Below, piece after piece: positions 33,154 through 56,059 of a stretch of DNA of 64,000 bases. The translations under genes were made by a program, and so were the position numbers. Source of the DNA: an uncultured Clostridia bacterium. GTDB lineage: Bacteria; Bacillota; Clostridia; UMGS1883. Location: NCBI GenBank assembly GCA_947626145.1, contig CANQRB010000004.1, forward strand, positions 29,250 through 93,249, in the 5' to 3' direction. How positions within the stretch are numbered: the first letter of the stretch is position 1; every line of letters starts with the position of its first letter. The notes under the pieces are model-generated. The model saw nothing but the letters and a program-made list of their open reading frames with translations, was not told the DNA's origin and searched no databases.

Positions 33154-33244
33154 TGGCGGAGAGAAAGGGATTCGAACCCTTGATCGGGGTTAACCGATAC
33201 ACGATTTCCAGTCGTGCGCCTTAGACCAGCTCAGCCATCTCTCC
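33154..33244 (-). tRNA. tRNA-Ser (anticodon GGA)
   Basis: Minus-strand GGAGAGATGGCTGAGCTGGTCTAAGGCGCACGACTGGAAATCGTG...long variable arm...GGGTTCGAATCCCTTTCTCTCCGCCA. 7-bp acceptor stem, CTGGAAA anticodon loop, class II variable arm, encoded CCA. Confidence 0.85.
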
Positions 33245-53153: not shown

Positions 53154-53423
53154 TTAACCCTTATTTTCTCCGTGTACATCCTCAAACGGTTTGGGGCAGT
53201 CAGGGTCAAGGTCACAACAGAACAGAAGAAATTCCGAAGAACTGGGTGAGTTTTCTTTTATAAACTCTATCATTTTTTGTGCCGTGCCAAGCCTTTTTGC
53301 GTCTATGCACGCACCTATTTCAAGGCCCTCATAACATCTCGGTATTGTCCTGACCCATTTTAACAGCTCCTGAAATTCTTCCCGCTCAAGCAGCGGGACT
53401 TTTTTCGTTTCTTTATTTTTCAT
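53154..53423 (-). CDS. Small Cys-containing hypothetical protein, paralog A (89 aa)
   Basis: Start at MKNKETKKVPLLEREEFQELLKWVRTIP. ~70% identical to the upstream paralog. The track's N-terminal extension is rejected. Confidence 0.6.
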   Translation of the reverse strand: MKNKETKKVPLLEREEFQELLKWVRTIPRCYEGLEIGACIDAKRLGTAQKMIEFIKENSPSSSEFLLFCCDLDPDCPKPFEDVHGENKG

Positions 53424-53676
53424 TTTGTATATCCTCGAACGGTTTGGGGCGTTTGGGGTCAAGGCCATAACAGAACAAAACGAGTTCTGAAGAGCTGGGG
53501 GAGTTTTCCTTGATGTAGTCAACGATTTCCTTCGTCTTGCCAAATTTTTTTGCTTCTATGCAAGTACCTATTTCAAGATCCACGTAACAGTCCGGTATCG
53601 TTCTGACCCACTTTAACAGCTCCTGAAATTCTTCCTGCTCAAGCAGCGGTATTTTTTTCGTTTCTTTATTTTTCAT
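53413..53676 (-). CDS. Small Cys-containing hypothetical protein, paralog B (87 aa)
   Basis: MKNKETKKIPLLEQEEFQELLKWVRTIPDCYVDLEIGTCIEAKKFG...SSSELVLFCYGLDPKRPKPFEDI. No signal peptide. Overlaps paralog A's start by 11 nt. Confidence 0.6.
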   Translation of the reverse strand: MKNKETKKIPLLEQEEFQELLKWVRTIPDCYVDLEIGTCIEAKKFGKTKEIVDYIKENSPSSSELVLFCYGLDPKRPKPFEDIQNEK

Positions 53677-55282: not shown

Positions 55283-55365
55283 ATGAATTTTTTGTTATTT
55301 TTATTTTAAACTAATCCCAAATTAAAATCATAAATATGTGAGTTCATTATGGTAACAATGACAGA

Positions 55366-55530
55366 TTAAAAAGGCTTCCCCTCGAGGGGAAGCTGTCAGC
55401 GACAGCTGACTGATGAGGTGTAGCCGCTGTGCGGCGTTAGCATAGCCGTAAACGTATAACGGATGCTTCGCATCCTACACCTCATCCGGCACTTCGTGCC
55501 ACCTTCCCCTCAAAGGGGAAGGCTTTATTA
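55366..55530 (-). ncRNA. Structured GC-rich element in the mazF 3' region / S8 upstream region (terminator + multi-stem domain)
   Basis: Nearly identical palindromic hairpins at both ends (gcttcccctcgaggggaagc; ccttcccctcaaaggggaagg). A 12-bp long-range stem gatgaggtgtag/ctacacctcatc encloses the hairpins gatgcgaagcatc and ggcacttcgtgcc. The first hairpin plus an A-run forms the minus-strand terminator. Confidence 0.35.
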
Positions 55531-55708
55531 TCTGCTATATTTAATACTACTTTCTAATTAAAATCATCAATTCACGGCAGTCTTTTTGGTCTCTTCCTTG
55601 TCTGACACGAAAAATCCTCGCCACTCGGTGTCTGCTTTTAATAGATTAGTATTAAATAAATAAGGGGACAGGCTTTCAGATCAAACCGAAAACCCGTCCC
55701 CGCTCCGC

Positions 55709-56059
55709 TCACCTTCCGCTCAGCCCGAAGCTGACGGATATGGCGTCGTTGACCTTTACCATCTGCAATTCATCCAAACGGCCTATCTTTTCACGAAGGC
55801 GCTTTTTATCTATGGTCCGTATCTGCTCCAGAAGGACGACGCTGTCCTTTTGGAGGCCGTACTGGGCCGCCTCTATCTCAATGTGCGTGGGGAGCTTGGC
55901 CTTGTTGATGCGGCTGGTTATGGCGGCGGCTATGACCGTGGGGCTGTACTTGTTGCCCACGTCGTTCTGCACCACCAGCACCGGCCTGACGCCGCCCTGC
56001 TCTGAACCCACCACCGGACTAAGATCCGCGTAAAAAATGTCGCCTCGCTTGACAATCAC
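55709..56059 (-). CDS. mazF: Type II toxin, MazF/PemK (EndoA/NdoA) endoribonuclease
   Basis: [33 protein letters not shown]... is the canonical MazF/EndoA sequence. 116 aa. Confidence 0.9.

Follow-up and report, generated by a model that had tools for sequence, protein, structure and literature searches.

A GC-rich hairpin element between mazF and an S8 peptidase gene

In the 64-kb stretch of contig CANQRB010000004.1 from an uncultured Clostridia bacterium studied here (the window; positions are counted from its first letter), the mazF gene (55709-56059, minus strand) and the gene of an S8 peptidase (subtilase) are separated by an intergenic region with no open reading frame (ORF) of 40 or more amino acids between 55233 and 55709. 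Within this region lies a palindrome-rich element with a GC content of 0.53-0.60, compared with 0.15-0.25 in the surrounding intergenic sequence. We conclude that it very probably belongs to a hairpin-rich family of non-coding DNA repeats dispersed in gut Oscillospiraceae/Ruminococcaceae-type Clostridia, similar to transposable elements of the miniature inverted-repeat type (MITEs) and to REPINs (doublets of repetitive extragenic palindromes, REPs). It is unlikely to be an RNA gene or the mazEF terminator. The element reached the locus recently, inside a 346-bp insertion.

The predicted fold of the element (55370-55526) contains five stems. RNA folding gave -89.5 kcal/mol (z = -9.7) for the plus strand and -87.4 kcal/mol (z = -7.8) for the minus strand, and DNA parameters gave z = -10.4; no shuffled sequence reached any of these values. 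A covariance model built on the five-hairpin structure (R1; 146 positions, 33 pairs) scored this copy at 121.1 bits (E = 1.9e-32) on the plus strand and at 80.3 bits on the minus strand. Both strands score because the left half of the element approximates the reverse complement of the right half. Neither blastn nor R1 found a further copy in the 64-kb window. The parts of the core are as follows.

55370-55526, plus strand (the family sense strand is the plus strand of the window): conserved core element, 157 nt, placed by the R1 score and by the blastn span in virome contigs
55374-55393, plus strand: hairpin P1, GCTTCCCCTC/GAGGGGAAGC, an inverted repeat that is terminator-like on the minus strand, where a T-run adjoins it; C-G to T-A compensatory changes among copies
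55395-55410, plus strand: hairpin P2, GTCAGC-GACA-GCTGAC; the stem letters vary among copies and the pairing is retained
55412-55486, plus strand: helix P3 of 12 bp, GATGAGGTGTAG (55412-55423) with CTACACCTCATC (55475-55486), enclosing a variable interior
55488-55500, plus strand: hairpin P4, GGCAC-TTC-GTGCC, supported by covariation; the loop reads GAA on the minus strand
55502-55522, plus strand: hairpin P5, CCTTCCCCT-CAA-AGGGGAAGG followed by CTTTATTAT, terminator-like on the plus strand; compensatory changes independent of P1
55353-55382, plus strand: left arm (TAACAATGACAGATTAAAAAGGCTTCCCCT) of the core subfamily's extended inverted repeat; its 30 nt match the complement of 55514-55543 at 77%

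The first-pass annotation of this region had described two near-identical end palindromes and a 12-bp long-range helix, which are indeed present as P1 and P5 (55374-55393 and 55502-55522) and as P3 (55412-55423/55475-55486). It had also placed two GAA-looped hairpins inside the helix. Both exist on the minus strand, but only the one at 55461-55475 (GGATGC-TTC-GCATCC on the plus strand) lies inside, and P2 was missing from its list. The variable interior of P3 holds two small hairpins in this copy. When scanned against a terminator consensus, plus-strand P5 and minus-strand P1 both pass, as matches to the consensus only.

Filled and empty sites at the mazF locus

We compared ten contigs that encode exactly the MazF of the window (comparison contigs and loci carry the prefix L). 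The block containing the element is present in four of them (L002, L005, L008, and L010) and absent from the other six, whose contigs cover the site. L002 and L005 have a mazF-S8 spacer of approximately 500 nt, L008 and L010 also contain the start of the block, and in L001, L003, L004, L006, L007, and L009 the spacer measures only approximately 154-163 nt. L002 and L005 are 99.99-100% identical to the window and carry the block. Both flanks of L009 match the window at 98.4-98.5% identity, yet the block is missing, as it also is from more distant relatives (85-92% identity). The empty site reads ...CCTTATTTATTTAAAATAAAAATAAC... (...TTATTTATTTAAAATAAAAAT... in L009), whereas the occupied site has TTAA at both sides. 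The inserted DNA begins with ACTAATC and ends with GATTAGTA. The features of the site are listed below, together with two signals of the flanking genes that lie outside the element.

55306-55651, no strand: insertion of 346 bp (a 342-bp element plus one duplicated TTAA), absent from otherwise syntenic relatives
55306-55309, no strand: left copy of the target duplication TTAA (up to TTTAA on the other strand), from the comparison of filled and empty sites
55652-55655, no strand: right copy of the target duplication TTAA, from the same comparison
55664-55701, minus strand: true mazF intrinsic terminator, a 16-pair hairpin with a T-run, 8 nt past the mazF stop codon
55254-55282, minus strand: promoter-like site for the S8 peptidase gene, TTGACA-17-TACAAT (11/12 matches), 24 nt beyond the insertion

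The insertion point is located 12 nt downstream of the mazF terminator stem. Relatives with the empty site retain this terminator, and their S8 promoter-like sequence is identical to that of the window. Because close and more distant relatives without the block keep both signals, the block is dispensable and was recently gained, and the element is not needed at the mazF-S8 locus. The earlier assignment of the first palindrome as the mazEF terminator is thus not supported, since mazF has a separate terminator (55701-55664) that remains in place at the empty sites.

In the lineage of the window, the core is nested inside an AT-rich MITE with terminal inverted repeats of approximately 18 nt, and the composite measures 342 bp. 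Three features belong to this carrier.

55310-55327, plus strand: outer left terminal inverted repeat, ACTAATCCCAAATTAAAA, pairing as an inverted repeat with 55644-55660 (17 nt, 88%)
55633-55651, plus strand: outer right terminal inverted repeat, ...TTTTAATAGATTAGTA, from the inverted-repeat match
55537-55636, plus strand: extra segment of approximately 100 nt, lying in the carrier's right arm and missing from L105

The carrier ends TACTAAYCYCAAATTAAAA... and ...TTTTAATNGGGATTAGTA are shared by the copies L105 and L067 of a related metagenome-assembled genome (MAG). Short duplications at carrier copies consist of A and T only: TTTAA in the window and, plausibly, TATAA in L105. The extra segment is bounded by a direct repeat of TCTGCT (55531-55536 and 55631-55636) and contains a second left-end-like copy (55538-55571), a 34-nt direct repeat with 79% identity. 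A weak promoter-like site on the minus strand (TAGAAA-18-GATAAT, 55556-55527; 9/12 matches in AT-rich sequence) is not a feature of the family, as it is located in this copy-specific segment. The outer repeat was seen once within the window, and a metagenome scan for the AT-rich subfamily returned zero matches.

A dispersed family in gut Clostridia

A blastn search against phage records matched 15 unverified "Bacteriophage sp." contigs of human faecal origin (71-90% identity). The matches were confined to the core, query positions 77-242 corresponding to 55366-55531 of the window. From these virome copies we derived the search pattern GACTGATGAGG-N35-65-CCTCATCCGGC, for which approximately two chance matches are expected in the genome collection. 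The pattern was found in 11 IMG/VR contigs and in at least 117 stretches of species-representative genomes, nearly all from Oscillospiraceae- or Ruminococcaceae-type gut organisms. A separate search of the plasmid collection yielded a chance match only. R1 identified approximately 170 distinct copies among the loci examined, with unrelated neighbouring genes. The carriers of the family include Gemmiger, Faecalibacterium, and many MAGs. There are at least 17 copies in the genome of Gemmiger formicilis MCC627, at least nine in ATCC 27749, and at least 13 in an uncultured Gemmiger. In the rabbit-gut MAG CANRJP01, the mazF site is empty (L001), but at least three copies are present elsewhere (L040, L067, and L105), and these carry the same AT-rich arms as the window copy.

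Among the origins that the first-pass annotation had considered, a miniature inverted-repeat element or dispersed repeat is therefore the one that agrees with the data, since the 346-bp insertion is absent from close relatives and the core is multi-copy in many genomes. The Rfam check proposed there gave no family for either the window copy or the GC-rich copies. In Rfam, the whole window matched tRNA only, and the element region gave only chance matches far below threshold at E values up to 10. Eight loci with many copies matched only 6S RNA and tRNA, which are located elsewhere in those loci, and a consensus-like copy matched only sub-threshold miRNA hairpins. The 6S RNA (70.2 bits) lies at L104:7151-7344 of G. 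formicilis, near two copies of the element to which it is unrelated.

Searches of the literature with sequence strings and keywords found no published description of the family. A 2024 MITE survey includes among its results MITE-based links between 33 viral sequences and Gemmiger (PMC11602168). These links may involve the present hairpin family, which that part of the survey would capture only implicitly.

Copies in the virome and IMG/VR contigs (L011-L026) sometimes number two or three per 5 kb. Several other copies lie on GC-rich contigs of MAGs labelled Bacteroidota, Proteobacteria, Actinobacteria, or Chloroflexi. These include loci labelled Barnesiella (L027, L059, L068, L088, L107, and L120), Oxalobacter (L086, L110, and L143), Phascolarctobacterium (L054), and Collinsella (L063, L123, and L132), and copies on GC-rich contigs of off-phylum MAGs also occur at L042, L046, and L057. 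Either Oscillospiraceae contigs are present in those bins, or the element crosses phyla.

Five covarying hairpins with a fixed polarity

The family unit is approximately 130-170 nt long, is non-coding, and has the fixed directional layout P1-P2-P3-P4-P5. From the left, it reads (AAA)G-GCTTCCCC-loop-GGGGAAGC (P1), TG, GTC-N-loop-N-GAC (P2), and T. The central P3 consists of GATGAGG, 35-65 variable nucleotides, and CCTCATC, and is followed by C. On the right, it continues with GGC-N-loop-N-GCC (P4), A, CCTTCCCC-loop-GGGGAAGG (P5), and CTTT. The unit resembles a pair of inverted arms of approximately 50 nt about a variable centre. The differences between the arms are conserved, with GCTGTC...GACTG on the left and GGTGGC...GCCGG on the right, and the orientation of each copy is therefore well defined. 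In every one of the approximately 170 copies, R1 scored the sense strand 30-45 bits above the antisense strand.

In the R1 alignment, standard pairs occupy 96.8% of the stem cells compared with 84% in shuffled alignments. The covariation score is 0.279, against 0.080 for shuffles and 0.015-0.040 for slid partners. Among the sense rows, the variable positions of P2 and P4 use all four Watson-Crick pair types. One position of P2 has AT 31, GC 19, TA 13, and CG 8, the next has GC 43 and CG 27, and one position of P4 has CG 37, GC 22, and AT 9. The base of P3 (GATGAGG/CCTCATC) is near-invariant in all copies. In P1 and P5, C-G to T-A switches occur independently of each other in 11 of the 78 copies: C-G in P1 with T-A in P5 was found in six copies and the reverse in five, while six copies have T-A in both.

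Minimum free energy (MFE) folds, with RNA as well as DNA parameters, join the end palindromes in a long closing stem. Such a stem is not backed by the independent compensation in P1 and P5. As the conserved structure, the alignment favours a row of five local hairpins over a long closing stem.

Transcribed-strand RNA normally shows a clear excess of G·U pairs. The sense rows contain 25 G·T pairs and 25 A·C mismatches, each approximately 1% of the stem cells, and a strand-specific RNA function has no signature in these wobble pairs. These results point to single-stranded nucleic acid in paired form, both strands being equally constrained. Equal constraint would mean hairpins or a cruciform in DNA, or a palindromic protein site in the case of the invariant P1, P5, and P3 base.

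The interior of P3 (55424-55474 in the window) occurs in both orientations among copies whose arms point in the same direction. It has one orientation in the window and in L105:4132-4288, and the opposite one in L067:2907-3065 and L040:7869-8000. L052 and L058 share 35 nt of P3 interior at 100% identity on opposite strands. Inverted interiors were found in 17 of the 72 similar pairs, although some short matches may be palindromic stems. This flip/flop arrangement suggests that the P3 arms recombine with each other or that copying passes through a hairpin.

Gemmiger-type copies at 13 places have a module of approximately 60 nt inside P5 (or inside P1 on the other strand), located exactly between CTTC and CCCC, with the sequence AGTCTACGCGCTAAGAGCCGCC-tacg-GGCGGTTGCGCTCCGACACGCGCCTGCGGGCGCAG. 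The places include L041:4564, L050:497, L064:3477, L079:3102, L116, L117, and L138. A nested mini-insertion with the hairpin as its target is one possible origin, and a mosaic module is another. At one orthologous Gemmiger site, a full element (L118:2513-2655) corresponds to the solo hairpin AAAAGCTTCCCCAAAAGGGGAAGGCTCTTT (L079:1529-1546), and the 15 nt to the left of the solo hairpin differ between the two genomes. This difference could reflect a deletion between P1 and P5 or an insertion at a pre-existing hairpin. We also considered REP-like solo hairpins as the basic unit of the family and rejected this idea, as approximately five true solos stand against 245 hairpins within elements.

Placement of copies among genes

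Gene calls for the context statistics were made with a simple self-trained ORF scorer, which agreed with our manual reading of two loci. With respect to tandem flanking genes, 46 copies are co-oriented and 48 anti-oriented (p = 0.92), and a cis-regulatory orientation bias is thus not seen. A further 25 copies are in convergent gaps, six in divergent gaps, and five inside ORFs. Relative to the intergenic types of the same loci, convergent gaps hold 20% of the copies versus a background of 11%, and divergent gaps hold 4.8% versus 11.4%. A gene 3' end faces 119 of the 125 intergenic copies. A stop codon is no more than 10 nt away in 47 (38%) of these copies and no more than 30 nt away in 64, and stop codons adjoin the P1 side and the P5 side equally often. 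In GC-rich copies, conservation extends only 3 nt past the end hairpins, A-rich on the left and T-rich on the right. The variable stems of P2 and P4 showed no guide-like complementarity to the flanks.

Long ORFs run through some of the elements (e.g., L064:661-1359 and L104:5566-5934) and yield recurring peptides, such as ...GKLSPKVTDEG..., ...PPRGKLSPKVTDEG..., and ...PHPALRATSPQGG.... In the genomes that carry it, the family probably gives rise to gene calls that are spurious or over-extended.

Other features of the window

The sole Rfam match in the window, scoring 57.4 bits, is a tRNA of 88 nt whose variable arm is long (33157-33244, minus strand). Two small paralogous ORFs lie side by side downstream of the S8 peptidase gene (53154-53676, minus strand) and encode 87 amino acids and, as listed, 129 amino acids, the latter with an internal MKNKETKK start. 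Both read MKNKETKK(I/V)PLLE(Q/R)EEFQELLKWVRTIP.... The relative L001, which is 88% identical, has a 245-amino-acid protein at the corresponding place.

Comparison with known repeat systems

The family is best classed among non-autonomous, intergenic mobile repeats, and its closest known kinds are REPINs and bacterial interspersed mosaic elements (BIMEs) on the one hand and bacterial MITEs on the other. Its unusual characteristics are the five covarying hairpins, the fixed polarity, the flip/flop interior, nesting in another MITE, and a nested mini-module of its own.

The window copy has several attributes of a MITE. The insertion (346 bp) and its core (157 nt) are small and non-coding; the ends are terminal inverted repeats (ACTAATC.../...GATTAGT, 17 nt at 88%), and the core arms are mutually reverse-complementary. 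The family is multi-copy (at least 9-17 copies in Gemmiger) and polymorphic for presence, as the filled and empty mazF sites illustrate. Like Correia/NEMIS, ERIC, RUP, and BOX (PMC2229807, PMC3184786), the element is short, lacks coding capacity, and occurs in many copies; it has inverted repeats at its termini, is present in some strains and absent from others, shows a short duplication of A/T letters (at the window insertion), would fold into stable hairpins in transcripts, and has a modular or nested structure. It differs from these MITEs in that the core has no detectable target duplication in GC-rich genomes and in that each inverted arm of the core comprises two separate covarying hairpins.

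With REPINs, REPs, and BIMEs (PMC3116915, PMC2817692), the family shares an extragenic location, multiple copies, short GC-rich palindromes arranged as two inverted arms, the lack of target duplication, Watson-Crick compensation, a preference for gene 3' ends, mosaic variants, and solo hairpins beside full units. The REP head GTAG/CGTC, however, is absent from the consensus ends AAAGGCTTCCCC... and ...GGGGAAGGCTTT, and the only occurrences of GTAG lie in the variable P3, in some of the copies. The element is also larger (approximately 150 nt with five hairpins), has a fixed left/right asymmetry, and is found in Clostridia and not in Proteobacteria, and a partner of the REP-associated tyrosine transposase (RAYT) type is only hypothetical. 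The arms are inverted as in a REPIN and the MFE fold pairs them, yet P2 and P4 cannot pair with each other. The independent changes in P1 and P5 and the unpairable P2 and P4 favour local hairpins over the one long hairpin of REPINs.

Palindrome-associated transposable elements (PATEs) derived from IS200/IS605 carry subterminal hairpins that resemble each other at the two ends, lack a duplication, and are non-coding. Likewise, P1 and P5 are near-identical hairpins 3-4 nt from the ends, and core-only copies lack a duplication. In contrast to PATEs, the element has no strand or orientation bias, no conserved target tetranucleotide, no tnpA/tnpB remnant, and no ωRNA-like match (Rfam was negative); in place of a strand-specific target, we found only an A-rich triplet before P1 and 46 versus 48 copies in the two orientations relative to genes. 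Bidirectional intrinsic terminators are similar in their GC-rich hairpins (minus-strand P1 and plus-strand P5), with an A-run before and a T-run after, and in the position of many copies directly past stop codons. A terminator, however, has no need of P2-P4, does not recur as a 150-nt repeat across unrelated loci, and shows no insertion polymorphism. A hammerhead ribozyme, which CUGAUGAG had brought to mind, was rejected: in every copy GAUGAGG is paired along its whole length with CCUCAUC, the stem is not followed by GAAA, the unpaired CUGANGA...GAAA core is absent, and Rfam gave no match.

Discussion

We propose the following scheme for the spread of the family. The window copy would have moved as a 342-bp unit, mobilised by a trans-acting transposase with specificity for the outer inverted repeats, which would leave the 4-5-bp A/T duplication of the window insertion. 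In GC-rich relatives, the core would spread without duplication through an enzyme that reads folded DNA hairpins, in the manner of REPIN/RAYT or IS200/IS605 ends; from the missing target duplication of the core we infer an enzyme of this hairpin-recognising kind. Selection would act on Watson-Crick hairpins in DNA and not on a strand-specific RNA. The ends, each an outward hairpin with a T-run and located past stop codons, would probably serve as bidirectional terminators or 3'-end stabilisers, as a side effect or possibly by co-option. At the mazF locus, the copy would add at most some insulation between mazEF and the S8 peptidase promoter.

Several points weigh against a mobile repeat. Unlike classical DDE-type MITEs, the 127 GC-rich core-only copies showed no target-site duplication at any offset or length. 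Neither a transposase nor an autonomous parent with matching ends was found in the loci examined, where left and right arms were never separated by more than 110 nt with an ORF between them. It is insertion polymorphism and copy number, and these only, that point to mobilisation. The genome of the window, inspected over 64 kb, has a single copy there. The architecture and asymmetry are conserved beyond those of most MITE families, which could indicate a host function, and the element could conceivably also be transcribed and have a functional RNA form. Finally, the context statistics rest on the gene calls of a simple ORF scorer.

A conceivable alternative, to which we give a limited weight and which partly overlaps our preferred explanation, is that the element is primarily a module kept by the host as a bidirectional terminator, an insulator, or a protector of mRNA 3' ends, with transposition being secondary. 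Each end is an outward hairpin followed by CTTT(T), and this idea accommodates the 38% of copies within 10 nt of a stop codon, the excess in convergent gaps, and the depletion from divergent gaps. It also suits the orthologous site where a solo hairpin with an A-tract and a T-tract takes the place of the full element, and the conservation of the architecture across distant genomes. On the other hand, the T-runs are short (3-5 T) and often interrupted, and mazF in the window already has a terminator. One hairpin is enough for termination, which leaves P2-P4 unexplained, and purifying selection acting on a selfish element would lead one to expect the same scarcity in promoter regions.

It is rather doubtful that the core derives from an IS200/IS605- or REP/RAYT-type system and is moved as single-stranded DNA by an HUH Y1 transposase binding P1 and P5. 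The near-identical subterminal hairpins at both ends, the core-only copies without target duplication, the purely Watson-Crick covariation of the stems, the interior in both orientations, the extragenic location, and the high copy number would all agree with such an origin. Against it stand the even split of orientations relative to gene direction, a proxy for replication direction (46 versus 48), the lack of the GTAG/CGTC head, the lack of a conserved target tetranucleotide beyond the A-rich triplet, and the lack of a guide-like match of the variable stems to the flanks. RAYT and Y1 transposase genes are single-copy. A tblastn search for a Y1 transposase found no match in approximately 1 Mb of examined loci, which is a weak test given such single-copy genes and a query that only approximated IS608 TnpA.

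An independent small RNA (sRNA) gene on the minus strand is quite improbable. It would be approximately 150 nt long, start at approximately 55522 from the promoter-like site at 55556-55527, and end with P1 and TTTTT (55393-55366), so that the promoter-like and terminator-like sites are in the correct order and the fold between them is very stable. However, the -35-like box is in the extra segment of approximately 100 nt that is unique to the window copy and missing in L105, the promoter match is weak (9/12 in AT-rich sequence), and the sense strand of the family is the plus strand here. Copies usually adjoin stop codons, leaving no room for a promoter, and they occur in either orientation. There is no G·U excess, and close relatives have the locus without the element. 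The absence of an orientation preference and of a G·U excess, the copies adjoining stop codons, and the dispensability of the block here likewise make the two RNA roles suggested by the first-pass annotation unlikely, namely an sRNA derived from a 3' untranslated region and a regulatory RNA for the subtilase.

A cis element specific to this locus, as the mazEF terminator or a 5' regulatory RNA of the S8 subtilase gene or both, is hardly credible: P1 and the T-run on the minus strand fit the terminator consensus and the position between the two genes is suitable, but mazF has its own 16-pair terminator directly past its stop codon, the S8 promoter-like site is downstream of the insertion and leaves the element outside the S8 leader, the block is missing altogether from relatives in which these genes and the promoter are the same, and the same core lies beside unrelated genes in approximately 170 other places.

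Returning to a dispersed mobile repeat, we tentatively raise the possibility that the core is an undescribed class of hairpin-defined mobile element of gut Clostridia, REPIN-like but with five hairpins and fixed polarity, and with no duplication. Its copying would involve DNA that is folded or single-stranded, its movement would depend on a single-copy enzyme, and the host would have co-opted it as a bidirectional terminator at gene 3' ends in Faecalibacterium, Gemmiger, and relatives. Copying of folded or single-stranded DNA would explain both the pure Watson-Crick covariation and the flip/flop interior.

At the level of the locus, which is itself ordinary, an apparent regulatory RNA is explained away as a recent and dispensable insertion. 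The family, which has no Rfam match, is abundant in some of the commonest human and animal gut commensals, creates strain-level insertion polymorphisms, and is present in virome contigs. Its position at gene 3' ends could shape transcription termination and mRNA stability in these organisms. R1 provides a handle for a census of the family and for finding the mobilising enzyme, and makes a repeat that is abundant in important gut bacteria tractable.

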